Part shown: one piece after another, positions 2,312 through 64,000 of the stretch | Numbering within the stretch: the stretch's first letter is position 1 | Layout of the letters: each line of letters begins with the position of its first letter | Assembly: GCA_017625755.1 (NCBI GenBank) | Contig: JAGAKG010000041.1 | Coordinates: forward strand, 1,709-65,708 | DNA: 64,000 bases | Direction of reading: 5' to 3' | Origin: Clostridia bacterium | GTDB lineage: Bacteria; Bacillota; Clostridia; Oscillospirales; CAG-272 | The notes under the pieces: generated by a model | Told to the model about the DNA's origin: nothing | The model's input: the letters and a program-made list of their open reading frames with translations, nothing else | Database searches by the model: none | Position numbers and translations under genes: made by a program

Positions 2312-3901
2312 ATGATTACTGCAAAAAATCCGATACTTTCGGGCTTTCATCCCGATCCTTCGATACTTCGCGTTGGTGAGGATTATTTCGTTGCCACGTC
2401 GACATTTCAGTGGTTTCCCGGAGTTTCGCTTTACCATTCGCGCGATCTTGTGAATTGGGAAGCGTTGCCCTCGCCGCTTAGCCGTTCATCTCAGCTCGAT
2501 ATGCAGGGCGATCCGAATTCGGGCGGAGTTTGGGGACCGTGTCTTTCGTACTGTGACGGAACGTTTTATCTTATCTACACGAACACGAGAAATTTTCACG
2601 GTATTTTCAAGGACACTCCGAACTATCTCGTTACAACGACTGATATTTTCGGCGGTGAGTGGAGCGAGCCTATTTATCTTAATTCAAGCGGCTTTGATCC
2701 GTCGCTCTTTCACGATGATGACGGGCGCAAATATCTTCTCAATATGCGTTGGGATCACCGAATGGAGTTTCACGATTTTGCGGGGATTCTTATGCAGGAA
2801 TATTCAGAGAAGGAAAAGAAGCTCGTCGGCGAGATAAAAACTATTTTCAAGGGAACGCCCATCGGCGCGACCGAGGCTCCGCATCTTTATAAAAAGAACG
2901 GATATTATTATCTTATGCTTGCCGAGGGCGGAACGATGTACAATCACGGAGTTCAGCTTGCGCGCTCAAAAAATCTTTGGGGGCCGTACGAGGCTGATCC
3001 GCTTTCGCTTCTTACGACGAGAAATGATCCTTCAAGTCCGCTTCAGCGCACAGGTCACGCCTCGTATATTGAAACGCCTGACGGCGACGGATACGTTGCG
3101 TATCTTTGTGCAAGACCGATTGGGGAAAAGAAGCGTTCTATTCTCGGCAGAGAAACGGCTATTGCCAATGTCGAATGGCGCGACGGCTGGCTTCGCTTAA
3201 AGGACTCCGATACGTTGACTCCGCCGACGGAGTATAAGGTTTTTCTTGAGGAGCATAAATATCCTTGCTCTGACATAAGAGATTATTTTGATTGCGATAC
3301 GCTTCCGCATCATTATAAGACTCTGCGCTTACCTCTTGAAAGAATTGGCTCTCTTACGGAAAGGCGCGGATTTTTGCGTCTTTACGGACAGCAAGCGATA
3401 ACCTCGTGTGACGTGCAGAGCCTTGTCGGCAGACGGCTTCAGCATTTTAAATCGCAAAGCACTACTTATCTTGAATTTGATCCGAAAACTTTTCAGCAGA
3501 TGGCGGGTCTTACGGTATTTTACGATACTTATAATTTCTTTTACCTTTATATGTCGCGCGATGAGGAAAGCGGGCAGAACGCGCTTCGCATAGTCGTTCG
3601 CGATAATCTTAAATTCTACAATCCGATAAACGGCTTTAAAATTCTTATTGGGGAAAGCAAATGCGTTTGGCTAAGAGTCAATATCGACAGCCTGTGCCTT
3701 TCGTTCTCGTATTCTCTTGACGGAGAGGAATTTTTCTCTATCGGCGGTGAGCTTGATTGCTCGGATCTTAGTGACGAGGCGTATGTCGATATCGGTCACG
3801 AGGGACATACGGGCACGTTCGTTGGTATGGCTTGTCAGGATCTTACCGGTGAGCGAATCGGCGCGGATTTTAAGTTTTTTGAATACAAAAGCCTTGAATA
3901 A
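2312..3901 (+). CDS. GH43 beta-xylosidase / alpha-L-arabinofuranosidase
   Basis: N-terminus NPILSGFHPDPSILRVGEDYFVATSTFQWFPGVSLYHSRDLVNWE is a classic XynB-type GH43 signature. The length (529 aa) fits a catalytic domain plus a beta-sandwich domain. Confidence 0.85.
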   Translation: MITAKNPILSGFHPDPSILRVGEDYFVATSTFQWFPGVSLYHSRDLVNWEALPSPLSRSSQLDMQGDPNSGGVWGPCLSYCDGTFYLIYTNTRNFHGIFKDTPNYLVTTTDIFGGEWSEPIYLNSSGFDPSLFHDDDGRKYLLNMRWDHRMEFHDFAGILMQEYSEKEKKLVGEIKTIFKGTPIGATEAPHLYKKNGYYYLMLAEGGTMYNHGVQLARSKNLWGPYEADPLSLLTTRNDPSSPLQRTGHASYIETPDGDGYVAYLCARPIGEKKRSILGRETAIANVEWRDGWLRLKDSDTLTPPTEYKVFLEEHKYPCSDIRDYFDCDTLPHHYKTLRLPLERIGSLTERRGFLRLYGQQAITSCDVQSLVGRRLQHFKSQSTTYLEFDPKTFQQMAGLTVFYDTYNFFYLYMSRDEESGQNALRIVVRDNLKFYNPINGFKILIGESKCVWLRVNIDSLCLSFSYSLDGEEFFSIGGELDCSDLSDEAYVDIGHEGHTGTFVGMACQDLTGERIGADFKFFEYKSLE

Positions 3902-36164: not shown

Positions 36165-36512
36165 TTGCAGCGACAGCGGCGCTTTCAAAAAATGATCGGA
36201 GGGAGAAGAATAGACGAAAGAACAGTAAAAAAGCTTAAAAGGATACTTCTCAAAATAGCAAGCTCAAACGCTAACGATCTGCTTGAATGGTGTAAGAGCG
36301 CTTCGCAGGGGGAGCAGAACGCTACGGCTATGAGCGACGAGCTTGCGCTCAGCGTTTCGTCAATAAAGATGAAATCGTCGAACGGGAATCTCGAATACGA
36401 GATAAAGCTCGTTGATAAGCTGAAGGCGATAGAGCTTTTGTCGAAGCTTCTCGGCATCTCCGAGGAGAGTGAGGGGGGAGAGCTAACGATAAATTATGAC
36501 TACCGAGAATAG
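36165..36512 (+). CDS. Short terminase small subunit-like protein
   Basis: C-terminal half ...IKMKSSNGNLEYEIKLVDKLKAIELLSKLLGI matches the oligomerisation region of Terminase_2-type TerS. No recognisable N-terminal HTH. The start is ambiguous (TTG at 36165 or ATG at 36192). Confidence 0.55.
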   Translation: MQRQRRFQKMIGGRRIDERTVKKLKRILLKIASSNANDLLEWCKSASQGEQNATAMSDELALSVSSIKMKSSNGNLEYEIKLVDKLKAIELLSKLLGISEESEGGELTINYDYRE

Positions 36513-37773
36513 CGTTTTCGTGCCGATGAATGAAACGTTTCGCGAGTCTAACTCGGTAAGAGCCAGATACAGAGTGGAGTGTGGCTCTGCGGGAAGCGGA
36601 AAGAGTGTAAACGTTGCAAGAGATTATATAATTAAGCTTTCTGACAAGGCGTATTCGGGAGCAAATTTGCTTTGTGTAAGAAAGACTGAAAGCTCGCATT
36701 TTGACAGCACGTACGCGGAGCTTACAAGAGCTATAAAGGATATTTTCGGAAAGCGGTGGCAGAGGTATTGGGAGCTTTCACGATCACCGTTAAGGATGCG
36801 CTGCAGGACTACGGGAAACGAAATAATCTTTCGCGGAACGAAGGATGACAGCCAAAGAGAGAAGCTGAAATCCATTCAAAGCGCGCAGGGAAAGATAGTG
36901 TGGGTGTGGATAGAGGAGGCAACGGAGCTTGACCCCGGCGATCTTGATATAATAGACGACCGACTTCGTGGCTCGCTTGAGGAAATAAATCCAAGGCTTT
37001 ACTATCAGATAACGCTCACCTTCAATCCCGTAAGCGCAAATCATTGGATAAAGAAAAGGTTTTTCGACAAGGCGGACCCTCTTGCATATACTCACAGATC
37101 AAATTATCTTCAGAATGCGTTTATAGACTCGGAATACCACAAAAGAATGATGCGAAGACGTGAAAACGACCCTGAGGGGTATCGTATTTATGGGCTTGGA
37201 GAGTGGGGCGAGAGCGATGGCTTGATCCTGCCGAAATACGAGGTCAGAGAGCTTGATAAGCGCTTTGAGCATTACGATAGCGTTTATATCGGTCAGGACT
37301 TTGGCTACAATCACGCGAACTGTATTTTAACGGTAGGCTTTCGTGACGGAGATGCTTATGTGCTTGGCGAGCTGTACACAAGAGGACTTGACACCTCGGA
37401 GATAATTGAGCTTGCAAAGCGCGCAAAAGTATCGCAAGCGGTGCCGATGTACTGTGACAGTGCAGAGCCCGACCGCATAAGGACGTGGAAAAAAGCAGGA
37501 TTTTTCGCCGTTGCCGTTAAAAAAGAGCCCGGATCTGTCGGCGCGCAGATAGATTATTTAAAGAGCCACAGGCTTTTTATCGACACGTCCTGCGAAAATC
37601 TCATACGGGAGATAAGCATGTGGAAGTGGGAAAGGGATACTGACAGCGGAGAGTATACCGATATTCCCGTTTGCACCTGTGACGATGCGATAGCGGCGCT
37701 CCGCTATTCCATAGAGGGTGTAAGAAAAGGCAGAAGACTCCGCACAATATCAAAAAGCACACTCGGCATATGA
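36496..37773 (+). CDS. Terminase large subunit (PBSX/XtmB-like)
   Basis: Walker A GSAGSGKS, WIEEATE (Walker B-like), and a C-terminal nuclease region. Positioned between TerS and the portal gene. Confidence 0.85.
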   Translation: MTTENSVFVPMNETFRESNSVRARYRVECGSAGSGKSVNVARDYIIKLSDKAYSGANLLCVRKTESSHFDSTYAELTRAIKDIFGKRWQRYWELSRSPLRMRCRTTGNEIIFRGTKDDSQREKLKSIQSAQGKIVWVWIEEATELDPGDLDIIDDRLRGSLEEINPRLYYQITLTFNPVSANHWIKKRFFDKADPLAYTHRSNYLQNAFIDSEYHKRMMRRRENDPEGYRIYGLGEWGESDGLILPKYEVRELDKRFEHYDSVYIGQDFGYNHANCILTVGFRDGDAYVLGELYTRGLDTSEIIELAKRAKVSQAVPMYCDSAEPDRIRTWKKAGFFAVAVKKEPGSVGAQIDYLKSHRLFIDTSCENLIREISMWKWERDTDSGEYTDIPVCTCDDAIAALRYSIEGVRKGRRLRTISKSTLGI

Positions 37774-37791
37774 CGGGTGAGAAAGGAAAAA

Positions 37792-39039
37792 ATGACACAG
37801 GAACAGATCAAGGAAATTATCGAAAATTTCAATTCTCAGACACTCCCCAGGCTTAAAAGGCTCAAAAACTATTATTCGGGCAATCACGATATTCTTAATA
37901 AAACGAAGGATGCGGGCAAGCCGAACAATCAGCTCGTTAATAATTTTTGCAAAAACATCACCGACACGACAGTGGGATATTTTATGGGCACGCCCGTTTG
38001 CTATTCCTCGGACAGAGAGGAGCTTATCGGCAGTATAAGGCTCATAAACGATTATAACGACGAGCAGTTTATAAACAGCCGTCTTTCAAAGGATCTTTCT
38101 GTATACGGCGTTGCCTGCGAGCTTGTTTATTATGACGAGGATAAGATGATAAGAATAGCTCCGTGCGATGTTTTAAGCACGATACCCGTTTATTCGCCGT
38201 CAATAGATAGGGAGCTTAGCGCCGCGATAAGAATTTACGAGCTTGAAGACGCCGAGGATGAGGATACCGTAGGGCTTGAGATCTATGACAGTAATCTCGT
38301 AAGCTACTATTCGTACAACACCTCAAGCGGCGAGGCGGTTATGATAAGAAGCGTTCCGCATTATTTTGGGTTAGTGCCGATAAACTTCTATTATAATAAC
38401 TCCGATAAGACGGGTGATTTTGAGTCGGTAATGACACTTGTTGACGCGTATAACGAGCTTCAAAGCGAGAGCGTGAACGATTTTGAGCTTTTTGCGGATT
38501 CGTATCTTGCGGTTACGGGAATGAACGCGACAGACGCTGAGGACATAGCGAAGCTGCGTGAAAACAGAGTATTGCTTATTGACGAAGGCGGAGATGCAAA
38601 GTGGCTCACAAAGAGCGTGAACGATGCGTATATTGAAAACCTCAAGAAAAGAATATCATCAGATATCTACCGCTTCTCCGGCTCTGTTGATATGACGGAC
38701 GATGCAATAGGCGAAAGCGCGTCGGGAGTGGCGATAAAATACAGACTCCTTAACTTTGAAAACAGAGTTTCGGTTACGGAGAGATATTTTAAGAAATCGC
38801 TTATGCGCAGATACGAGATGATATGCAATATGCTAAACACTCTCGGAAACGACTACAGCGCGACGGAGATAAGGATAACCTTTACGAGAAATATTCCCGA
38901 AAATCCTATTGATAACGCGGATTACGCACAGAAGATGGCGGGGGTAGTGTCGAGAAAGACGCTTCTTGAAAGAATACCGTTCGTTGATGACGTGGATAGC
39001 GAAATGTCGCGGATAAGAGAAGAAAGCATTAATAATTAG
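37792..39039 (+). CDS. Portal protein (SPP1 Gp6-like)
   Basis: About 415 aa, directly after TerL. RLKRLKNYYSGNHDIL N-terminus and YRLLNFE pattern. Confidence 0.75.
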   Translation: MTQEQIKEIIENFNSQTLPRLKRLKNYYSGNHDILNKTKDAGKPNNQLVNNFCKNITDTTVGYFMGTPVCYSSDREELIGSIRLINDYNDEQFINSRLSKDLSVYGVACELVYYDEDKMIRIAPCDVLSTIPVYSPSIDRELSAAIRIYELEDAEDEDTVGLEIYDSNLVSYYSYNTSSGEAVMIRSVPHYFGLVPINFYYNNSDKTGDFESVMTLVDAYNELQSESVNDFELFADSYLAVTGMNATDAEDIAKLRENRVLLIDEGGDAKWLTKSVNDAYIENLKKRISSDIYRFSGSVDMTDDAIGESASGVAIKYRLLNFENRVSVTERYFKKSLMRRYEMICNMLNTLGNDYSATEIRITFTRNIPENPIDNADYAQKMAGVVSRKTLLERIPFVDDVDSEMSRIREESINN

Positions 39040-39047
39040 GAGGAAAA

Positions 39048-39599
39048 ATGGAGGAAGAAATTTTAAACGAGAAACAAAAAGAGGCTTTGGACACAGATAA
39101 TGTCGAGGCGAAAAACGCAGATATCGAGAAAACGGAAGCCTCCGAGGCTGAGCAGGAATTAAAAGAGCCGAGCAAGCCTGACGAGCAAAAAACGACACTC
39201 CCTGCGCCGAAAACGGAAAGCAGCGACAAGCTTGACTCGCTTGATGCGGAAATAAAAAGACTCAAAAGAGAGCTTGACGAGGAGAGAAAAAAGCGCATAG
39301 AGGGAGAAAGCAGGCTTTATTGTATGGAGGCTCTTGAAAAAAGAGGGCTTCCAAGATCGCTTTGCGAGTTTTTGACTGCTCAAAGCAACGATGAAACGGA
39401 CAAAAGAGTGGAGAGAGTGGCTGAAATTATAAAGTCCTCGGTAAACGAGGAAATATCAAAAAGGCTTCAAGGAGTGCCTCAGCCAAGCAAAAGCGCGCCC
39501 GTTATGTCAAAGAGCGCGTTTAAAAATCTCTCACTTGACGAAATGCAGCGCTTATATAAAACTGACAAAACACTTTATATGTCGCTTGCGAAAAAATAA
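39048..39599 (+). CDS. Capsid scaffolding protein (DUF4355-like)
   Basis: Acidic N-terminus, coiled-coil EIKRLKRELDEERKK, then ...LEKRGLPRSLCEFL. Position is between portal and capsid. Confidence 0.65.
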   Translation: MEEEILNEKQKEALDTDNVEAKNADIEKTEASEAEQELKEPSKPDEQKTTLPAPKTESSDKLDSLDAEIKRLKRELDEERKKRIEGESRLYCMEALEKRGLPRSLCEFLTAQSNDETDKRVERVAEIIKSSVNEEISKRLQGVPQPSKSAPVMSKSAFKNLSLDEMQRLYKTDKTLYMSLAKK

Positions 39600-39619
39600 A
39601 ATTATGAAAGGATAAAATT

Positions 39620-40690
39620 ATGCATACAATTTACGAAAATCAAATTCTTGAAAACAAAATGACCGAGCTTATCGATACTAAGCTCAATACAAGAGCTCTT
39701 ATGACTCTTGACACATCACTTGCCGAGGGCGCGGGTCTTCGCAAGGTTATCAACCGCTATACCTACAAGGGAACTGTTGAAAATCTTGAAAAGGGTGCGA
39801 AAAACACTGTGAAGGGAACTGTTTCCTTCGTACCTGAATATTATGATGTTAAGAGATATCAGCAGACCTTTGAATATAACGATATGGATGCTATGAGCGA
39901 TCCTTATATCGTTGAGGTAGCTATGAGAGGCGCGGCAAACGAGATCACAAATCAAATCAATAAGGAATACTTCAATGAGCTTTCCAAGATCTCAAGAAGA
40001 AGCCATTTTGACGGCGATGCCGTTACATACGCGGATATCGTTGACGCTCTTTCTCTTATAGATGTTGAGGTCGACAAGCAGCTCTTTATCATTATGGGCA
40101 GCGAGATGAGAAAGCAGATAAGAAAGGACCCTGATTTTGTTGCATCAAAGCAGGGCGAGATCCTTTATACAGGTCAATTCGGTACGCTTTGCGGAATACC
40201 CGTTCTCTTTTCAAAGCTCGTTGAGGGCGTAAAAGCCTACGTTACAAATCAGGATGCGGTGCGCTTCTTTGTAAAGAAGGAAGCCAGCGTTGAGCAGGCA
40301 AGAGATATCGAAACTAAGGACAACACCGTAGTTTACGAGCGTCACGGTCTTATTGCTCTTGTTGACGATACTACATCCTTGCAGATCGGTAAAAACATTC
40401 CCGATCTTAAGATATCCGTTAATGAGAATTCATCAACCTCAGACGGAATTACTATGGCTAAGGTTACTCCTACAAAATCGAACCCAAGCAATATTGTTTA
40501 CTATACTTATCAGGTAAGCGGGAAGCCGTTTTACGGAGATGCAATAAATCAATCCATTTGTGCGCAGCTCTTATCCGACGGTAATATTGCTCAGTTTAAT
40601 AAGGGTGAGAAGATAGAATTCTTTGAGGCCGAGCCCAACACGGGTCTTATTGTGGGCTATGCCGAATACACCTTTAAAACGAGCTTGTAA
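39620..40690 (+). CDS. Major capsid protein with a C-terminal extension
   Basis: 356 aa, directly after the scaffold gene. Assigned mainly by position and size; the family was not recognised by eye. Confidence 0.6.
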   Translation: MHTIYENQILENKMTELIDTKLNTRALMTLDTSLAEGAGLRKVINRYTYKGTVENLEKGAKNTVKGTVSFVPEYYDVKRYQQTFEYNDMDAMSDPYIVEVAMRGAANEITNQINKEYFNELSKISRRSHFDGDAVTYADIVDALSLIDVEVDKQLFIIMGSEMRKQIRKDPDFVASKQGEILYTGQFGTLCGIPVLFSKLVEGVKAYVTNQDAVRFFVKKEASVEQARDIETKDNTVVYERHGLIALVDDTTSLQIGKNIPDLKISVNENSSTSDGITMAKVTPTKSNPSNIVYYTYQVSGKPFYGDAINQSICAQLLSDGNIAQFNKGEKIEFFEAEPNTGLIVGYAEYTFKTSL

Positions 40691-40705
40691 TGAGGAGTGA
40701 GGGAA

Positions 40706-41035
40706 ATGGGATTTAAATCGGACAAAACACAGGACGAAATACTCAAAGAGGTATTGACGCTCCTTTCAATATCCGATAACGAAACGGAGAAAAACGTCGT
40801 TTCAAGCATCATTCCAAATGCGTTTCTCTATGCCTGCGAGTATTGCGGCATAGAGAGCGTGCCCTCGCATCTTCTTATACAGATGACGCTTGAGGATTAT
40901 TCCAAAATAACCTCAGCCGGACTTACCAAAAGATCGCTTTCATCGCTTTCCGAGGAATATCTCGATAATTATTCTCCCAAGGTTATGGCTATTCTTGATA
41001 AGCTGAGGGGCGAAAAAAGGCTTATATGTCTGTGA
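40706..41035 (+). CDS. Head-tail connector (gp6-like adaptor)
   Basis: About 110 aa. N-terminus ...DEILKEVLTLLSISDNE... is typical of Phage_connect_1-like proteins. Lies downstream of the capsid gene. Confidence 0.55.
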   Translation: MGFKSDKTQDEILKEVLTLLSISDNETEKNVVSSIIPNAFLYACEYCGIESVPSHLLIQMTLEDYSKITSAGLTKRSLSSLSEEYLDNYSPKVMAILDKLRGEKRLICL

Positions 41036-41044
41036 GGTGATGCT

Positions 41045-41374
41045 ATGTTAAAAACGAAGAAAAGACCTTACAGGGTATACAGGCTTGAAAAGGTATCGGG
41101 GGTTAGCATAGCTAAATTTATCGCAAGCGTTGGAATATGTGTGGCTATGACCTCTGACAGACGCGATATAGATAACGATGTTAAATGCGTATATCTTAAA
41201 AAAAGGTACGCAGCGGTTGCCGATTCGCATATTATAAAGGATGGAGATATAATCAGGGACGGCGATAGCTTTATGAGAGTTATCAGTGCGGTGTCATACG
41301 GAAACGAGAGCTATTTACATCTTGAAAGCACAGAGGTCTTCCAAGGAAGCGCGTTTGAATTTGAGGAGGCATAG
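41045..41374 (+). CDS. Head closure / head-tail joining protein
   Basis: 109 aa. C-terminal pattern IIKDGDIIRDGDSFMRVISAV......LHLES resembles SPP1 gp16-type proteins. Confidence 0.5.
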   Translation: MLKTKKRPYRVYRLEKVSGVSIAKFIASVGICVAMTSDRRDIDNDVKCVYLKKRYAAVADSHIIKDGDIIRDGDSFMRVISAVSYGNESYLHLESTEVFQGSAFEFEEA

Positions 41375-41375
41375 G

Positions 41376-41720
41376 ATGTTTGACGTTATTTTAAATAAGA
41401 TCAAGGACGCAGTTGACAGAAGCGTGCTTGACAGACTCGAAAAAGTAAACGAGGAGTGCGTTATCGTCAACATCGAGCCGCAAAGCTATGACGGAACAGT
41501 ATGCGATTCTACCGTAAAGGTGGTTTGCGTGTTCAAAAGCTATGAGGCATCACTCGATTGCTTTGACAAGGTGTGTGATGCGCTTTATTCGCTTCCTGCC
41601 GAGGATGGCGAGGTGCTCGATACTGTTCTTCAAAGCACGTTGATAAGATACGATACCGTATCGGGAATGACAAGACTTTTGGGAGAGTTTTCGGTATTTA
41701 CGCGCGGAGAGGAGGAATAA
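41376..41720 (+). CDS. Small neck / tail-completion-like protein
   Basis: 114 aa. GAGGAGG RBS inside the end of the previous gene. Function assigned by position only. Confidence 0.35.
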   Translation: MFDVILNKIKDAVDRSVLDRLEKVNEECVIVNIEPQSYDGTVCDSTVKVVCVFKSYEASLDCFDKVCDALYSLPAEDGEVLDTVLQSTLIRYDTVSGMTRLLGEFSVFTRGEEE

Positions 41721-41722
41721 GC

Positions 41723-42499
41723 TTGAAAATAACTAACGGCAGAGAGACTTTGGTTTTCGGAGAAGGGGTAAGACTTACGTCGTTTTCGGAGAAGGGCTTT
41801 TGGGTAGACAACAATCTTAACACTGTGGTTGACGGCTTTGGCTATCACAAGGAGAATGCTAAGGTCGGCGCGAAGCGAATGATTTTGAAGGGCTACATAG
41901 AAAAGGATATTGAAGCGAATAAGCGGCTTTTGAACAGAATTTGCGATCCCAGCGTTGCGTTTTGCCGGATATACGATGGGAATTATGTGCTTGAGGGAAG
42001 GCTTTACAAGGGCATAGAGTATTCGGATAGGAAAAACGACAAGCTCAAGCTGCTTGCCTTTACAGCGGAATTTTTTTGCCCCGATCCTGCATGGAAGGAT
42101 ACGGAGGAAAGAACGGAAATGCTCTATTCCTGCGGAAGCACCTCTTCGGGACAGGAGCCTCTCGTTTTACAGAACGACGGTGACAGAGAGGTCGGCTTTA
42201 AGCTTCGTATCGTTTTATCTTTGTCCTGCAAAAAAATAGAAATATCCTGCGATGACAAGAAAATAATTCTTTCGGGATCGTTTTCGGTCGGACAAAATAT
42301 CTATATAGATACAAGAAAGGGCGAATGTACCGTCAATATAACGCCTGTAAATTCAACCTCTCTTTCAAACGGAATGAGATATGTTTTGGCAGGCTCTGAA
42401 TTTTTTAAGCTTAAGGTAGGGACAAGCTCTATCGGATATGAGTTTAACGGCGGAGCAGGGCATCTTGTGGCGACATATACACAGGAGTATTTGAGATGA
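41723..42499 (+). CDS. Distal tail protein (Dit, Sipho_tail-like)
   Basis: KRMILKGYI, FFCPDPAW, LQNDGDREV, GSEFFKLKVG: the pattern of siphophage Dit proteins. TTG start 2 nt after the previous stop. Confidence 0.6.
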   Translation: MKITNGRETLVFGEGVRLTSFSEKGFWVDNNLNTVVDGFGYHKENAKVGAKRMILKGYIEKDIEANKRLLNRICDPSVAFCRIYDGNYVLEGRLYKGIEYSDRKNDKLKLLAFTAEFFCPDPAWKDTEERTEMLYSCGSTSSGQEPLVLQNDGDREVGFKLRIVLSLSCKKIEISCDDKKIILSGSFSVGQNIYIDTRKGECTVNITPVNSTSLSNGMRYVLAGSEFFKLKVGTSSIGYEFNGGAGHLVATYTQEYLR

Positions 42500-43485
42500 T
42501 GGATATAAAAATATACAATCCTGCCTTTGATCTTGAGGGAGTTATTGATTTCGTGAAGGAATATGATTATACCGAGGAGTTCAACGATTATTCGGAGTTT
42601 CATATGAGAGTGCCGAGCTCTGATAAGAACAGAGAGCTTTTTATAACGGATAATTATATTGCCTTTTCGGACAAGCTTTTTCTTATTGATCGCGTAGTCG
42701 CCTCGGAAAATGAGATATATGCAAGCGGAGTAAGCATTTTTGCGCTTTTCAGGGATGTTCTTATAGAAGAACCGCAGGTTTTCAAGACCAATCCTTACGA
42801 TACAGTCGCGGAGCTTGCCAAGCTTATCAGCATTCCGTATGCCACCTATGAGGTGTATACGATGCTTTGGAACAGCGAAATCACTTACAGTCAAATAAAC
42901 TGTGTAAATACGAGCGTTTACACCCAGATAAGAAACATTTGCAATATTTACGGCTTCGGCTTTCAGATGACGTTTTCTCCTGTTTCTAAAAGGATAATGT
43001 TTCAGATTATGCCGAAGCAGAAAAGGTACAGCGACGGCGGAAGCTTTGCTTACGCAATAAGCGATATGAGAAATATGTACGAGCGTTGCTCCGTTGAAAG
43101 CGATATGTCGAGCTATAAAAACTACGCTCATATTCCTTACGGATATATTGATGATGTATATACCTACGAAAATGTCGATCATCGAGTAAGTCCGACGAAC
43201 GAGAGAAAGCGCGCGATAAGCGTCAGTGTTCCTGCTATGCTTTCGTCAAGGGATCTTTCCGCTTCGTTAAGATATCTTGGCGAGATTGCGCTCTCTCATC
43301 ACAGGGAAATAATCAGATTTACCGTGGAGCTTTTAAAGGATGTCGATGCTTCGCCCGGGGATGTGTGCGATTTTGAGTGTAAAAGAGACGGATATTTTTG
43401 TCACGCGCTCGTAAAAAGAATAACGAGAGGAGAGAAGGACGGCGCTGCTTTTGTCAGGGTGGTGCTTGATAAGGAGCATGAATGA
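42496..43485 (+). CDS. Gp37-like (Tal N-terminal-like) tail/baseplate protein
   Basis: N-terminus MDIKIYNPAFDLEGVIDF...YSEFHMRVP...LFLIDRV resembles the ReqiPepy6 Gp37-like family that follows Dit in siphophages. Confidence 0.5.
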   Translation: MMDIKIYNPAFDLEGVIDFVKEYDYTEEFNDYSEFHMRVPSSDKNRELFITDNYIAFSDKLFLIDRVVASENEIYASGVSIFALFRDVLIEEPQVFKTNPYDTVAELAKLISIPYATYEVYTMLWNSEITYSQINCVNTSVYTQIRNICNIYGFGFQMTFSPVSKRIMFQIMPKQKRYSDGGSFAYAISDMRNMYERCSVESDMSSYKNYAHIPYGYIDDVYTYENVDHRVSPTNERKRAISVSVPAMLSSRDLSASLRYLGEIALSHHREIIRFTVELLKDVDASPGDVCDFECKRDGYFCHALVKRITRGEKDGAAFVRVVLDKEHE

Positions 43486-47917: not shown

Positions 47918-48216
47918 AATGTACTCCTGAATAAAATATCAAGCTTAGCTAAAGGGATGCTAAACATAATTATTATACCATACGATGATATAAAATGCAA
48001 GTGTATAATTAAATAGACAAATTTTCTACACTTTTTATCATAGCCGAGGTTGACGTTACGTCAACTTTTGAGTATGTGATTATAAACAAAAAGAAACTTT
48101 ATAGGCGCAGAAGGCTTTTCTAACGCGTACTTGTGTATCAAGAGGGGAAACGTACAAGCGAGGATAACGCCGATCATTTTCAGCGTTCTTTTTGTTTTCT
48201 CCTTTTTTTAAAAGTG

Positions 48217-48245
48217 TTGACTTTTTTTAAAATACAGTGTATAAT
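48217..48245 (+). promoter_or_regulatory. Near-consensus sigma-70 promoter for candidate structured RNA copy 1
   Basis: TTGACT, 17-nt spacer, TATAAT. Confidence 0.7.
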
Positions 48246-48249
48246 CTTA

Positions 48250-48330
48250 TCAAGAATTCAACCAGACGCCGGCAGAAATTGCACGGAAATCCGGAGGTAA
48301 CTCCAAATTTCGGTTGAATTCTTTTTTTAT
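48250..48330 (+). ncRNA. Candidate structured small RNA (unclassified), copy 1
   Basis: Outer stem AAGAATTCAACC/GGTTGAATTCTT plus a U-run. Inner hairpins CCGGCA-GAAAT-TGCACGG and GGAG-GTAA-CTCC. No ORF. Paralog at 59281-59357 with compensatory changes. Confidence 0.6.
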
Positions 48331-48581
48331 TTTTTACCATGCTTTTTTGCGTATTGTTTATTGAATTTCTTTATAGCTTAAAGCGTTTTTGACGGTCGGT
48401 TGCTTTATCTGCGGATGCGCCGTAATGCTTTTGCTACCATAATAATCCCTTTAAGATAATAATATAGCGCAAAAGCGTTGCGTTCGATAAGAATAAAAGC
48501 AAGTTTTAATAAAAAAGCATTGAAATCGGCGACAAAATATCTTATAATTAAGTAAAGATATTTAAAATGAAGGAGAATAAA

Positions 48582-59187: not shown

Positions 59188-59249
59188 CCTCAAGCGCTAT
59201 ATAATTTGCTCGTAATATCAGAGCTTTAGGCAATGATTATGAAAAAATA

Positions 59250-59277
59250 TTGACTTTTTAAAAATATGGCGTATAAT
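59250..59277 (+). promoter_or_regulatory. Near-consensus sigma-70 promoter for candidate structured RNA copy 2
   Basis: TTGACT, 16-nt spacer, TATAAT. Confidence 0.7.
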
Positions 59278-59280
59278 ATA

Positions 59281-59357
59281 TCAAGAATTCAGCCCACGCC
59301 TGTAGAAATTACAGGAACCATGGAGGTAACTCCAAATCTGGCTGAATTCTTTTTTAT
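59281..59357 (+). ncRNA. Candidate structured small RNA (unclassified), copy 2
   Basis: Outer stem AAGAATTCAGCC/GGCTGAATTCTT plus a U-run. Inner hairpins CCTGTA-GAAAT-TACAGG and GGAG-GTAA-CTCC. Confidence 0.6.
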
Positions 59358-59511
59358 TTTCACCATATTTTTCAAGTTAAAAAGTATATAAAAATTGTAT
59401 ATAAAGTGAGCAAAAATCCTTATGAATAAAGAAAAAAGACCGTATAAATACCTACTTTGTGAGTAGTTTTTATACAGTCTTTCTGGCTAATAACCCTAAT
59501 TTTGATACAAA

Positions 59512-59751
59512 TTAAGCAGCATCAAAAACTCTTATTTCATCTAAAAAGGCGTCCATATAGCCATGCAATTCCGCACTACGGCTTTGCAATTCTTGCAAGG
59601 CGGAAGGAGTGATGCTGTGGTTTAATAAGTCTCTTAATTTCTTTACGGACATTCTGCCAGGAGAATCTTCCGAACCGAACAAGTTTGTTAATAAAGCCTT
59701 ATCAAACGTATATCCAGCAAATGACAATGCAAAGGGGACTTGTGTCATCAC
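59512..59751 (-). CDS. Small hypothetical protein (79 aa), last gene of the ImmA-like operon
   Basis: The GTG/ATG start overlaps the upstream stop codon (TAGTGATG). No recognised family. Confidence 0.45.
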   Translation of the reverse strand: MMTQVPFALSFAGYTFDKALLTNLFGSEDSPGRMSVKKLRDLLNHSITPSALQELQSRSAELHGYMDAFLDEIRVFDAA

Positions 59752-59969
59752 TACTTTAAAGTAATCACTATACTGTCCAGTTTTTTGTATTGATGTTCTC
59801 TCAAAATAAATTTATATGTAATTTCACAAATCGAGAACTTATCTTTGAAACTGTCAATTTCGGCTTTAACTTTTTTATCGTTAAATATTGTCTCAAGACG
59901 AAGCATTTCTGCACGAGCATCATTTCTTAACCGTAATTGTTCTTGCGGGTTTATTTTTGGGGTAGCCAT
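59751..59969 (-). CDS. Small hypothetical protein (72 aa)
   Basis: AAGGAG RBS about 7 nt before the ATG at 59969 (MATPKINPQEQ...). Predicted helical. No recognised family. Confidence 0.45.
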   Translation of the reverse strand: MATPKINPQEQLRLRNDARAEMLRLETIFNDKKVKAEIDSFKDKFSICEITYKFILREHQYKKLDSIVITLK

Positions 59970-59988
59970 TTTGCATCTCCTTTGCCAT

Positions 59989-60504
59989 TTACAATGTGAA
60001 ACCAAGTGTACGCATCATATAGAAAAGATTTTCTGTTTTGACACCGAACACATTGGCAACATCGGGGATTTTGGCGTTCTTGCTCGGGCTACGGGGATTG
60101 AGCCCTTTGTTCGGCACTTCAAATGTGATTATGGTATATCCTTTTGCTTTCGCTGTAGATATTAACCACGGGTCAGCTACAGTACCTTTTGCCCATTCAG
60201 CCAAAGCGGAAGGCTTGTAACAAGCATTGCTTTGAATATGACCTAAGACTGCTCCGTAATGTGCTAATATGGTTGGATCTCTTCGGTCAACATAGGTGCC
60301 TATTGTTAAAGCCTCTATCCAATCTTTCAAACTATCCTCACCCTGGAGTATTTCGTCTTTGACCAAATCAAGAATAGCAATATCTCCATTTTGGATATGC
60401 TCCTCCATTTGGCTCCAAAAGCTTTCAGCAAAATCAAACGGATAATACATCAAATGCGGAGTGATAAGGGAGTTGGCATCAATCAAGAAAATTTCTTTAC
60501 TCAT
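59989..60504 (-). CDS. DUF4411 PIN-like nuclease family protein
   Basis: N-terminus FLIDANSLITPHLMYYPFDFAESFWSQMEEHIQNGDIAILDLVKDEI fits the DUF4411 pattern. Start overlaps the upstream stop by 4 nt. Confidence 0.6.
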   Translation of the reverse strand: MSKEIFLIDANSLITPHLMYYPFDFAESFWSQMEEHIQNGDIAILDLVKDEILQGEDSLKDWIEALTIGTYVDRRDPTILAHYGAVLGHIQSNACYKPSALAEWAKGTVADPWLISTAKAKGYTIITFEVPNKGLNPRSPSKNAKIPDVANVFGVKTENLFYMMRTLGFTL

Positions 60505-61679
60505 TTCAAGCCACCTCCTACCGTTTCTGCCAAATTACTAAAAGTAGAGCGGTTTGTATTTGTAAGACGGAAAGCATCCGAATATAATGTGCGACCGGCT
60601 TTAACACTACCTACGAGCATATGGAAGAATCTTTTATCAATCCTACTAGCTGCCGTGCGATAGAAATCACCGCCACCTTCTCCGCGCTCCTTCTTTCTCT
60701 TGCGAGCCTCATTGTATAATGTAATTGCTAATTGCGCAATTTTTTTATACACATCATAAGAAATAAGGTTTCCGTCGTATGCCTTTCGGGCAATTACCGT
60801 AATACCACATTTGAATTTATCAGATAAGAGCCTAATGTTCTCTTCGTGATTATCCTTGTCTTCAAGAGCGTTCCACGCATCCACAAAAGCTTGATGAGGA
60901 ACTAATATTTCGGCAGCCACAGCATTGCAAAGTGTTTCAGCTTTCTTTACTTGTGTTCCGGTACTATCGCGATCATTAAATAAGCTATTTTCCCCAATGC
61001 ATAGGTGAGTAAACTCATGAAGCAAGGAAAACAGTTTTCCGTTGGTGGAATCATTAGAGTTGATAAAAATAAGCGGAGCATATTCATCTACCACCGCAAA
61101 AGCGCGGAACTCATTAATATCTAGCGGACGGTGGGTATTATTTCCTACGATTCCGCTCATCATTACGATAGTTCCTACGTTGCTCATTGCCGTTCTAATA
61201 TAGTTGAAAGATTCCTCGGCGGTTTTGCAGGCGGTATACCAATCAATTTTTATATCTAATATTTCTCTTACTCGCTGTGCAAACTTCATAAAATTGGATT
61301 GAGATTTAAGTTCTCCAACGAAAGTCAAAGGAGTACTTCCTTCAGAAATCAAATAATCTCGGACCCAATCTTGAACTTGCCCCATATCGTGCATTGTATC
61401 CATTAAATTTCGGCTAGGTGTGTCCAAGGAGGCACTGTCCACCGTGCGAAATTCAATTAAAGACATATCTTCGGCGGGAGGGGTTTGCAAAAAGAAATAT
61501 CCCAAAGGAATGCCCGTGGCTTTGCTCACTTTTTCAACTTGATTGAAAGTTGGCGTTTTTTTGCCGTGATGCCAGGACTCCAAGTATTCAACTATTTGAT
61601 AATTTAGGGTTTCGGGCTGTATTTGACCTAGTACCCAATTCAGTATTTCAGGGGAAATACTAACATTTACTTGCATCAC
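60501..61679 (-). CDS. HTH-containing ImmA/IrrE-family (COG2856, M78) metallopeptidase
   Basis: N-terminal HTH-like segment (TFNQVEKVSKATGIPLGYFF) and the zinc motif LLHEFTHLCIG (HExxH). Confidence 0.75.
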   Translation of the reverse strand: MMQVNVSISPEILNWVLGQIQPETLNYQIVEYLESWHHGKKTPTFNQVEKVSKATGIPLGYFFLQTPPAEDMSLIEFRTVDSASLDTPSRNLMDTMHDMGQVQDWVRDYLISEGSTPLTFVGELKSQSNFMKFAQRVREILDIKIDWYTACKTAEESFNYIRTAMSNVGTIVMMSGIVGNNTHRPLDINEFRAFAVVDEYAPLIFINSNDSTNGKLFSLLHEFTHLCIGENSLFNDRDSTGTQVKKAETLCNAVAAEILVPHQAFVDAWNALEDKDNHEENIRLLSDKFKCGITVIARKAYDGNLISYDVYKKIAQLAITLYNEARKRKKERGEGGGDFYRTAASRIDKRFFHMLVGSVKAGRTLYSDAFRLTNTNRSTFSNLAETVGGGLK

Positions 61680-61714
61680 TTCACCTCCTATTACAAGTAT
61701 TTATTGTTTGATAA

Positions 61715-62152
61715 TTATTCATTGGAACAACTATCAGTATTTTTTATTCTCAAGGTAACCTTAAAATTCTCTTCCGGGAACAGCGAATCGTGTTCACGGC
61801 ATCTTGCTACCTCTGCCTTTATAACGCTCTCAACGGCGTGTTTGCCGTATTCGTCAAGGCGTAAATATGCCATAATCGTTTCGTAAAAACTTTCCTCGGC
61901 TTCCCATATGCCGAGTTGCTCTATATCCTCTTCCGTTATCTTAGGCGAAGAAGGGTCATTGGACGAGCCGAGAATATAATCTATCCGTCTATCGAATATG
62001 TCTGAAAGCGCATCAAGCGTTTCAAAGTTTGGCTCTCGTTTGCCGATCTCCCACATTGCAACCGTTCCCTTGGAAACGCCCAAAAGTTCCGCAAGCTGCA
62101 CCTGGGTCATATTCTTTTCTTTACGTAATTCTTTCAATCTGTGAGCAAACAT
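61715..62152 (-). CDS. XRE-family transcriptional repressor (ImmR/CI-like)
   Basis: HRLKELRKEKNMTQVQLAELLGVSKGTVAMWEIGKREP (HTH_3). GAGGTG RBS before the ATG at 62152. Confidence 0.85.
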   Translation of the reverse strand: MFAHRLKELRKEKNMTQVQLAELLGVSKGTVAMWEIGKREPNFETLDALSDIFDRRIDYILGSSNDPSSPKITEEDIEQLGIWEAEESFYETIMAYLRLDEYGKHAVESVIKAEVARCREHDSLFPEENFKVTLRIKNTDSCSNE

Positions 62153-62245
62153 TTCATCACCTCGCATAAATTATATCACGAATCGTGAGTATTGTCAAGT
62201 GTTTTCTAACGCTTTGATGGTGCTTGCGATATTTTTTTGAAGAAA

Positions 62246-62317
62246 AAGATAACTTTCTGTGAGATTTGCTATTGACAAAGATAACTGAATGTTGTATAAT
62301 ATACTTGTAAATCTCAC
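62246..62317. promoter_or_regulatory. Divergent switch region: consensus promoter plus repeat motifs
   Basis: TTGACA (62272-62277), 17-nt spacer, TATAAT (62295-62300). Direct repeat AAGATAACT at 62246 and 62278. Inverted repeat GTGAGATTT (62259-62267) / AAATCTCAC (62309-62317). Confidence 0.6.
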
Positions 62318-62333
62318 GAAAGGAGAGAATTTT

Positions 62334-62522
62334 ATGAAAAATGAGACAAAACCGTCGATGATGACCATCAAGCAGATAGCAAAAACAGGGCTGATGCCCG
62401 AAAATGCTCTCCGTCAACTTTTGAAGGAAGGCAAGCTGCCTGTTGTCTATATCGGCAAAAAGGCTCTCATTAACTATTCCAAGTTATGTGAACTTCTCAA
62501 TCGGCTCGGTGATACCGAATGA
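62334..62522 (+). CDS. Excisionase/AlpA-like helix-turn-helix DNA-binding protein
   Basis: 62 aa. MTIKQIAKTGLMPENALRQLLKEGKLPVVYIGKK. AGGAG RBS. Confidence 0.6.
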   Translation: MKNETKPSMMTIKQIAKTGLMPENALRQLLKEGKLPVVYIGKKALINYSKLCELLNRLGDTE

Positions 62523-62555
62523 CCGATGCAAAATTTATGGAAAGGAGGAAACGGA

Positions 62556-64000
62556 ATGAGAACTCAATACACTAATCTGCCGAGCCTGTTAAAGAAGGAA
62601 GGCTTGTTTTGCTTATGGCAATACGAAACTCGCGATGGCAAAAAGACCAAGGTTCCGTATTGTATCCGTGGTTATCGTGCTGACCCCAGAAACAAAAATA
62701 CATTTTCAAAGTTTGACCAAGTCATTAGCCTTGCCAACGGATATGACGGAATCGGCATCGGTGTTTTTGATGACATCTGCGCCGTAGATATCGACCATTG
62801 TGTAGAAGACGGAGTGCTTTCAGAAATGGCTGACGATATCGTAAAAATGATGGACTCCTATACCGAGTATAGTCCCTCCGGTACTGGTGTGCGTATCTTT
62901 TTCAAGGCAAGCGGTCTGTCCTATGACAAAGAGCGTTACTACGTCAATAATCGCAAATTCGGTCTTGAAATCTATGTTTCCGGTTATACAAACAAATTTG
63001 TAACCGCTACAGGGAACGTGCTTATTGACCGAAATATCGAAGACCGAACCGAGGCTCTTTTGCTCGTACTTGAAAAATATATGGTCAAGCCGACACAGTT
63101 ATATACTCGCCGTGAGGATGTTCCCGGTAGCTTTCTTTCAGACGAGTCCATAATTGCCAAAGCAAGCGCATCCAAGCAGGGTGAAAAGTTCTCGGCTTTA
63201 TGGTATGGCGATGTCTCTGCATACGGAAGCCAAAGCGAAGCCGACCTTGCCCTTTGCTCCATTCTTGCATTTTGGTGTGGCGGTGATATTGAGCAAATGG
63301 ATAGACTCTTCCGTCAATCTGATCTTATGCGAGAAAAATGGGAGAGGGAGGATTATAGAATGAACACATTGAACCGAGCCGTGGCAATGACCAAGGAATT
63401 TTATAAGCCTCTCGGTCGAACCGCTCCGGCAGCGGAGTTTAATGATATTTCCATATTTCTTGATGAAGCCGCTCCCGAACGCAATGACCGTTACCCTTGG
63501 ACGGACATTGGCGGCGGACGGCTATTTGCGGATTGCTTTGAGAGCATTGCCAGGTATGTCCCCGAGAAGAAGAGCTGGTACTGTTACAAAGACGGCGTGT
63601 GGTCTACCGACAGCGGTGCGCTCCGCACGATGGAACTTTGTAAGGCGTTAGCGGATGCATTAATCGTATATGCGGTATCCATTCATGATGAACGCCAAAG
63701 ACAAGAGTTTATGAAATACTGCACCAAATGGCAGACGCGCCGTACGCGAGAAACGCTACTCAAAGATGCCCAAGGCGTACACCCCATATCCCTCTCGGAA
63801 TTTGATTGCGACCCTTACATCTTTAATTGTAAGAACGGTACATTACATCTTGATACGATGGCTTTTACAGAACATCGCGCAGAAGACCGCTTGACCAAGA
63901 TCTCAAATGTGGAATATGACCCTTCCGCATATAGTTCTCGGTTTGAAAGCTTTGTATCCGAAATTATGAGCGGAGATGTCGACAAAGCGAGATTTCTCCA
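62556..64000 (+). CDS. Prim-Pol / P4-family phage-plasmid primase (3' end outside the window)
   Basis: Frame is open to the window end. AVDIDHC and SPSGTGVRIFF (Prim-Pol); SQSEADLALCSILAFW...MDRLFRQS (PriCT-2-like); DPYIFNCKNGTLHLDT (D5_N/P4 region). AAAGGAGG RBS. Confidence 0.8.
   Translation, partial: MRTQYTNLPSLLKKEGLFCLWQYETRDGKKTKVPYCIRGYRADPRNKNTFSKFDQVISLANGYDGIGIGVFDDICAVDIDHCVEDGVLSEMADDIVKMMDSYTEYSPSGTGVRIFFKASGLSYDKERYYVNNRKFGLEIYVSGYTNKFVTATGNVLIDRNIEDRTEALLLVLEKYMVKPTQLYTRREDVPGSFLSDESIIAKASASKQGEKFSALWYGDVSAYGSQSEADLALCSILAFWCGGDIEQMDRLFRQSDLMREKWEREDYRMNTLNRAVAMTKEFYKPLGRTAPAAEFNDISIFLDEAAPERNDRYPWTDIGGGRLFADCFESIARYVPEKKSWYCYKDGVWSTDSGALRTMELCKALADALIVYAVSIHDERQRQEFMKYCTKWQTRRTRETLLKDAQGVHPISLSEFDCDPYIFNCKNGTLHLDTMAFTEHRAEDRLTKISNVEYDPSAYSSRFESFVSEIMSGDVDKARFL

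Follow-up and report, generated by a model that had tools for sequence, protein, structure and literature searches.

The window, that is, the whole 64,000-nt stretch of DNA analysed here, belongs to an uncultured Clostridia bacterium from ruminant gut metagenomes. Two intergenic cassettes on its plus strand, at 48217-48330 and 59250-59357, have the same layout by sequence, as the preliminary description had claimed: a promoter, two hairpins inside a 12-bp stem, and a U tract. The first (copy 1) lies in the intergenic region between an SNF gene and nagB, and the second (copy 2) follows a GH106-like gene. The shared unit can be aligned from just 5′ of the -35 hexamer to about 20 nt beyond the U tract with 85% identity, and the RNA bodies with 89% identity. 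Both copies are identical across independent assemblies of the same species from several samples (copy 2 in four), and the two-copy cassette is not an assembly artefact. Contigs of the source species derive from ERZ28018701, SRR12529167, SRR12529196, SRR12529202 and SRR12529203. The features of the two copies are given below; bit scores are those of R1, a covariance model built from the two copies only.

48217-48245, plus strand: copy 1 promoter, with -35 TTGACT (48217-48222), a 17-nt spacer and -10 TATAAT (48240-48245); predicted start at A48252
48252-48323, plus strand: copy 1 RNA body; MFE and centroid fold, z -4.9; 108 bits with R1
48252-48263 and 48312-48323, plus strand: copy 1 P1, a 12-bp stem
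48269-48274 and 48280-48286, plus strand: copy 1 P2, with A48283 bulged and the loop GAAAU at 48275-48279
48293-48296 and 48301-48304, plus strand: copy 1 P3, with the loop GUAA at 48297-48300
48264-48268, 48287-48292 and 48305-48311, plus strand: copy 1 junctions J1/2, J2/3 and J3/1
48324-48335, plus strand: copy 1 U tract TTTTTATTTTTT, T5AT6 immediately 3′ of P1, as read in the sequence
59250-59277, plus strand: copy 2 promoter, with -35 TTGACT (59250-59255), a 16-nt spacer and -10 TATAAT (59272-59277); predicted start at A59283/A59284
59283-59351, plus strand: copy 2 RNA body; MFE fold identical to centroid fold, z -6.7; 100 bits with R1
59283-59294 and 59340-59351, plus strand: copy 2 P1, a 12-bp stem
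59299-59304 and 59310-59315, plus strand: copy 2 P2, with the loop GAAAU at 59305-59309
59322-59325 and 59330-59333, plus strand: copy 2 P3, with the loop GUAA at 59326-59329
59295-59298, 59316-59321 and 59334-59339, plus strand: copy 2 junctions J1/2, J2/3 and J3/1
59352-59360, plus strand: copy 2 U tract TTTTATTTT, T4AT4 immediately 3′ of P1, as read in the sequence

Predicted promoters, terminators and fold

Each of the two promoters has optimally spaced hexamers and scores 11/12 against the consensus, a measure of sequence match from which activity is predicted, and sites with a score of at least 11/12 number 14 in the 64-kb window when both strands are counted. The -35 and -10 hexamers are the same in both copies, and the 3′ half of the spacer has diverged. 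P1 begins 6-7 nt after the -10 hexamer in both cassettes, and the predicted start is the first base of P1. At the other end, P1 runs directly into the U tract. P1 encloses a branched "loop" of about 48 nt, which is atypical for an intrinsic terminator, and is AU-rich beside the U tract; a simple terminator scan made no call on the P1 stem and U tract of either copy.

The consensus structure of both copies calculated by RNAalifold is the same three-way junction, and it is the MFE or the centroid fold of each copy. It consists of P1 with 12 bp, P2 with 6 bp and the loop GAAAU, and P3 with 4 bp (GGAG-GUAA-CUCC), joined by junctions of 4-7 nt. No shuffled sequence folds as stably as copy 1 (z -4.9) or copy 2 (z -6.7). 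An extended GAAAU/AUUUC helix seen in the MFE structure of copy 1 is not kept in copy 2. The GUAA loop is a GNRA tetraloop on the plus strand only, since the minus strand reads UUAC; the RNA was assigned to the plus strand because of this loop, the promoter and the U tract.

Conservation is not uniform along the element. A 16-nt block comprising P3 and J3/1 is invariant between the copies, while the spacer and junctions have changed. The tandem C-G pairs (CC:GG) found at the upper end of P1 and the lower end of P2 are likewise invariant, and the pairs next to them covary. From studies of GNRA receptors, GUAA loops are known to prefer tandem C-G pairs as receptors. The self-complementary hexamer GAATTC occurs in each arm of P1 (48254-48259 and 48316-48321 in copy 1; 59285-59290 and 59344-59349 in copy 2), so that each arm could pair with itself or between molecules.

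Compensatory changes and known RNA families

Of 72 positions aligned between the RNA bodies, 15 are different: 9 fall among the 28 unpaired positions and 6 among the 44 paired ones (14%). All six stem substitutions make up three compensatory pairs, namely A-U to G-C in P1, and G-C to U-A and C-G to U-A in P2, and all 22 pairs are intact in both copies. Counting the G-C to U-A change in P2 requires the bulged A of copy 1 to be read as an insertion; the alignment made automatically gives two double changes (P1 A-U to G-C and P2 C-G to U-A) and one apparent mismatch. Thus, the outer stem and the first hairpin do change in compensatory pairs as originally proposed, and the GUAA hairpin is identical in both copies. 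In two million simulations, six random stem substitutions kept all 22 pairs, G-U included, at a frequency of 2.65e-4. When the 3′ partners were slid by 1-3 columns, pairing fell from 98% to 30-52%. A column-shuffle control of covariation gave 123/500, a test that cannot reach significance with two sequences. Because there are only two sequences, the support amounts to one strong pairwise comparison rather than family-wide covariation, and since all changes are from one Watson-Crick pair to another, they do not separate RNA from DNA hairpins, nor one strand from the other. The comparison supports the view that the copies are genuine paralogous cassettes of promoter, structure and terminator, whose stems appear to have been kept by compensatory change.

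The element was also compared with known RNA families. With Rfam 15, there were no matches in the whole window at gathering thresholds, which is consistent with the initial impression that the RNA belongs to no known class. Four permissive local scans with Rfam gave nothing credible; the best scores were 24 and 23 bits against a cutoff of 55.2 bits, from Plastid-psbJ-4, the model of a plastid 3′-UTR stem, which scores on the generic long stem only and on both strands. The remaining permissive matches had E values of about 1 or higher. No CRISPR repeat family of Rfam was found in the window, a search that bears on a possible RNA anti-CRISPR mimicking a repeat, and ARAGORN predicted no tRNA or tmRNA genes there.

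Several specific candidates were rejected. The junction sequences, on inspection, do not fit hammerhead cores, and a tRNA-like gene is rejected as ARAGORN finds no cloverleaf. An ANTAR or RAT antitermination target does not fit either, because the terminator stem encloses P2 and P3, and they do not compete with it. A search for antisense targets within the window yielded only chance-level 11-12-mers and no significant complementarity, and a literature search with the invariant sequence returned nothing relevant. As for coding potential, the statement that neither strand has an ORF needs a minor correction. There are short ORFs, 26-55 aa long, that overlap the elements, but they begin 5′ of the predicted transcription start and none is shared by the two copies.

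Strain-variable loci and searches for relatives

The two loci were compared with those of a sister strain (GCA_052849575.1), represented by locus L036 on the nagB side and locus L118 on the GH106-like side. Its NagB protein is 98% identical to that of the window, and its GH106-like protein 93%. Two segments that surround the cassettes differ between the strains:

48039-48323, no strand: strain-variable segment of 285 nt, absent from L036 of the sister strain; flanks about 93% identical
59191-59478, no strand: strain-specific DNA that holds copy 2 and a bidirectional terminator hairpin at 59434-59482; homology with L118 stops at 59190

At the copy 1 locus, the sister strain shares the SNF-nagB intergenic region at about 93% DNA identity without 48039-48323. 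The segment is flanked by a direct repeat, TTTTTAT, at 48032-48038 and 48324-48330, and the right-hand repeat constitutes the first 7 nt of the copy 1 U tract. Its right end is the end of the 3′ arm of P1, and its left end lies 213 nt upstream of the 5′ arm, so that P1 is internal on the left side; the two ends (CATAGCCGAGG... and ...GGTTGAATTCTT) are not inverted repeats. The TTTTTAT repeat fits equally well a target-site duplication and a microhomology deletion in the sister strain. The stretch 48039-48216 (178 nt), which precedes copy 1 and is likewise missing from the sister strain, has no counterpart near copy 2, no Rfam match and no convincing ORF. Two further hairpins were observed in the 285-nt segment. 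One is a perfect hairpin, GTTGACG-TTA-CGTCAAC, at 48049-48065; the other, at 48139-48213 on the plus strand, is a long hairpin followed by U7, just 5′ of the copy 1 promoter.

The distance from copy 1 to nagB, which is on the same strand, was put at 250 nt in the preliminary description and measures 252 nt. The gene has its own promoter at 48520-48548 (TTGAAA-17-TATAAT, 11/12), and the sister strain keeps this promoter and about 250 nt upstream of it at about 93% identity without the cassette; all of the region 3′ of the indel is conserved there as well. In species with 91% and 80% NagB identity, nagB has different neighbours and there is no element near it; synteny is already lost at 91%. Elsewhere in the window, a compact cluster of phage-like head and tail genes was noticed at 36496-43485 (large terminase, portal, major head protein, Dit and minor tail protein). 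At least its tail end, beginning with the Dit gene, also occurs in the sister strain, whose fetched contig covers that part. The cluster may be a defective prophage or a GTA-like element.

At the copy 2 locus, the DNA of L118 is 92.6% identical to the window up to 59190, which is 3 nt past the stop codon of the GH106-like gene, and unrelated beyond. The GH106-like gene ends 63 nt before the copy 2 promoter, and the genes downstream of copy 2 are only convergent, none co-directional. Where the window strain has copy 2 and a mobile island, L118 has tRNA-Ser(GGA) at 3208-3298, with neither the RNA nor the island; no fragment of this tRNA-Ser(GGA) was found in the window.

The island itself occupies 59479-64000 of the window and continues in a further locus (L037) to about 14805. 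On its minus strand are two small ORFs and genes for a DUF4411 protein, an HTH-M78 peptidase that matches the RosmerTA RmrA models, and an XRE repressor; the peptidase and the DUF4411 protein look like a RosmerTA-type module. After divergent promoters follow an excisionase-like HTH gene and a P4-family primase gene running off the window. The two promoters, at 62198 (minus strand) and 62272 (plus strand), are perfect 12/12 matches that point away from each other in the interval separating the XRE repressor from the excisionase-like gene, and the pair looks, from its sequence, like the classic divergent genetic switch of such an island. In related islands the defence cargo is different (Dnd, BREX, an HD-domain protein), and after it come a capsid gene and two large serine recombinases; as judged from this gene content the family resembles satellite- or SCC-like islands with defence cargo. 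No close relatives of the DUF4411 and ImmA-like proteins of the island were found in IMG/VR.

The left end of the island can be placed rather precisely. A 33-nt sequence at 59479-59511, CTTTCTGGCTAATAACCCTAATTTTGATACAAA, is 94% conserved at the left end of a second island (L123, 23-55) with wholly different cargo, and its 27-nt core is matched exactly in another island (L126, 1240-1266). The ends of two short-read contigs fall at 59479-59511 or no more than about 20 nt from it. This site is likely a recombinase attachment site, judging from its sequence and position. A terminator hairpin precedes it in both the window and L126, and in L123 it is part of a dyad (TTTGTATCAT...ATGATACAAA) that resembles attP. 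With the left boundary of the island at 59479-59511, copy 2 is outside it by about 125 nt. Relatives of the island were screened through 86 loci with related P4-type primases, most of which are such islands (more than 1.1 Mb in total), and none of them has a match to R1. Since copy 2 lies outside the boundary and these loci lack it, the RNA is neither cargo of the island nor a recurrent feature of its attachment site; the idea of a defence-island cargo RNA was rejected for the same two reasons.

Relatives of the RNA were sought more widely. With filters off, R1 found just copies 1 and 2 in the window, and everything else scored below 20 bits and consisted of ordinary terminators. The model detected no homolog in about 1.7 Mb of fetched loci, including those of the sister strain and related species. 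The cassette was not found by R1 near nagB at homologous loci with 98, 91 and 80% NagB identity, nor near the homologs of the GH106-like gene with 93 and 78% identity. Thus, of the covariance-model search that had been suggested, the model from two copies could be built and run, and it gave no third member in the loci searched. Searches by blastn against phage and plasmid collections gave no match. Pattern scans require exact matches to chosen bases and could therefore miss diverged relatives, and their yield was as follows. In GTDB, with one genome per species, the pattern GAAAT-N8-22-GGAGGTAACTCCAAAT had two chance matches (in an Acidobacteriaceae bacterium and Algoriphagus). In IMG/VR, the 16-mer of P3 had 22 chance matches in coding or RBS contexts, and a degenerate pattern of junctions and loops had none. 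The same degenerate pattern matched 77 loci in JGI metagenomes, none of which scored with R1. Full rumen assemblies were reached through protein homologs only.

Alternative explanations and the candidate accessory RNA

The reading that fits these observations best is a stand-alone structured sRNA, for which we infer both transcription and termination from the sequence. Of the two options offered in the preliminary description, a stand-alone sRNA or a leader that terminates by default, the former thus fits best, and a leader of nagB is unsupported in view of the sister strain and the context of copy 2. The fuller proposal, that each cassette is an autonomous gene for a structured sRNA of about 72-80 nt that is both expressed and selected, may be right or wrong with about equal probability. 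In this proposal, transcription from the near-consensus sigma-A-type promoter would start at the first A of P1. The transcript would fold into a compact three-way junction, whose 5′ and 3′ ends are paired in the 12-bp P1, and P1 together with the U tract would end transcription and leave a closed, nuclease-resistant RNA. The exposed parts would be short junction strands and two small loops, one of which is a GNRA tetraloop. Such an RNA could act in trans as a folded molecule that binds a protein or a small ligand, and not by long antisense pairing. This preference for a folded binder over a classical seed-pairing sRNA is speculative; it comes from the short strands and small loops left exposed, and from the invariant tandem C-G pairs of P1 and P2.

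The nearest known counterparts are stand-alone bacterial sRNAs with Rho-independent terminators, particularly those that vary between strains and are encoded by accessory DNA, such as the Spr RNAs of Staphylococcus aureus genomic islands. The cassettes resemble stand-alone sRNAs in having their own promoter, a length below 100 nt, a terminal stem with a U tract, and no ORF. Like the Spr-type RNAs, they show presence and absence among close strains and occur in paralogous copies, although there is no sequence or family relationship. Unlike stand-alone sRNAs, the candidate RNA has both ends locked in a 12-bp stem around a three-way junction and no long single-stranded seed.

The first alternative is that the cassettes are MITE-like mobile or repetitive DNA, either as such or as a remnant, with palindromes kept as DNA and with the promoter and terminator as incidental cargo. 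Both copies do lie in DNA absent from the sister strain. The 285-nt indel of copy 1 is bounded by a 7-nt direct repeat that is a possible target-site duplication, and its right end coincides with the end of the 3′ arm of P1. P1 itself is a 12-bp inverted repeat with a GAATTC palindrome in each arm, and two copies per 64 kb could imply many copies genome-wide. However, just two copies were found in the window with filters off and none in the roughly 1.7 Mb of fetched loci. The 5′ arm of P1 is separated by 213 nt from the left end of the indel, whose ends do not form inverted repeats, nothing at copy 2 corresponds to the 178 nt that precede copy 1, and the TTTTTAT repeat is equally explained by a microhomology deletion in the sister strain. 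In addition, P2, an internal hairpin, also has compensatory changes, both hexamers of the promoter are conserved, and the loop is a GNRA loop on one strand only. The known small non-autonomous repeats with promoters or terminators, such as Correia/CREE, RUP and BOX, occur in tens to hundreds of copies and have defined terminal repeats and target duplications. The cassettes are like them in being intergenic units of about 100 nt with RNA-folding inverted repeats that vary between strains, but unlike them in that two copies are seen in the window and the indel ends are not the inverted repeat. A mobile DNA element is thus unlikely. As for the caveat that the elements might be the inverted-repeat ends of a MITE, two copies were seen in the window and the indel ends are not inverted repeats, but a mobile or strain-variable character is real, as both copies lie in DNA that the sister strain lacks.

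A second alternative assumes no function at all: a fragment with promoter, hairpin and terminator was recently duplicated, and the copies have since drifted neutrally in variable intergenic DNA. The extremely narrow distribution of the element and its dispensability in the sister strain are what such a relic would show, and no target or partner can be named. Stems could, however, break in sequences that are 85-89% identical, yet 22 of 22 pairs are intact and 6 of 6 stem changes are compensatory. The hexamers and the 16-nt block of P3 and J3/1 remained invariant while the spacer and junctions changed. This pattern of change makes neutral drift distinctly unlikely as an explanation.

Very unlikely is the third alternative, in which the element is a cis-acting leader, that is, a terminator-embedded aptamer or attenuator that would control read-through into nagB (in the case of copy 1) through binding of a ligand or protein to the junction. 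Copy 1 does lie on the same strand 252 nt upstream of nagB, and P1 both closes the junction and is the terminator stem, which echoes the HMP-PP (thiS motif) riboswitch, a terminator-embedded aptamer (PMC6478431). In both, the terminator stem also closes the fold, so that folding and termination are coupled. Unlike that riboswitch, which is a hairpin with an internal loop, the candidate is a three-way junction, and it has no Rfam match, no thiamin genes nearby and no dependent downstream gene. The purine riboswitch (RF00167 clan) offers a similar comparison. A three-way junction of purine-riboswitch size had been recognized at the outset, and overall size and the P1-P2-P3 topology are indeed alike; but the loops of 4-5 nt are too short for the loop-loop kissing that defines this riboswitch, the junction sequences are unrelated, the candidate is not in front of a regulated gene, and the purine riboswitch models of Rfam gave no match even in the permissive search with E up to 10. 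No other riboswitch model of Rfam matches either. A leader or riboswitch is disfavoured mainly because the sister strain retains the nagB promoter and 5′ region without the element, and because copy 2 has no co-directional gene downstream, where a bidirectional terminator and then convergent genes follow. The element is also missing near nagB in the relatives with 91% and 80% NagB identity, and no alternative antiterminator pairing is conserved between the copies.

Lastly, it is extremely unlikely that the RNA is the antitoxin in a type I toxin-antitoxin pair or the antisense partner in a similar cis-antisense pair: such loci are small, strain-variable, multi-copy and often unannotated, and a 38-aa ORF with a hydrophobic N-terminus (48061-48177, minus strand) adjoins copy 1, but this ORF has no correctly spaced ribosome-binding site or credible promoter, lies clear of the RNA, and is not matched by any such ORF at copy 2.

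The stand-alone structured sRNA therefore remains the best reading among those considered. The feature is real but narrow, and matches no curated RNA family. The candidate RNA gene is accessory: the window strain has it in duplicate, and as the sister strain lacks both copies, the RNA is dispensable. In kind, it is an ordinary one, an orphan, lineage-restricted candidate for an accessory sRNA. A bolder form of the proposal sees in the two cassettes the founding members of a new class of RNAs with a compact three-way junction, which would reside in strain-variable DNA of rumen Clostridia, work in trans as folded aptamers or decoys for proteins, and use the closing stem as terminator. We consider this improbable; if it were true, the RNA could, for instance, titrate a metabolite, a nuclease, or a factor involved in defence or anti-defence. 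If expressed, the cassettes would provide an unclassified, strain-variable small RNA for poorly studied, uncultured rumen Clostridia, and a tidy case in which the closing helix of an RNA is also its terminator. For the present, the main value of this two-member orphan is as a search seed.
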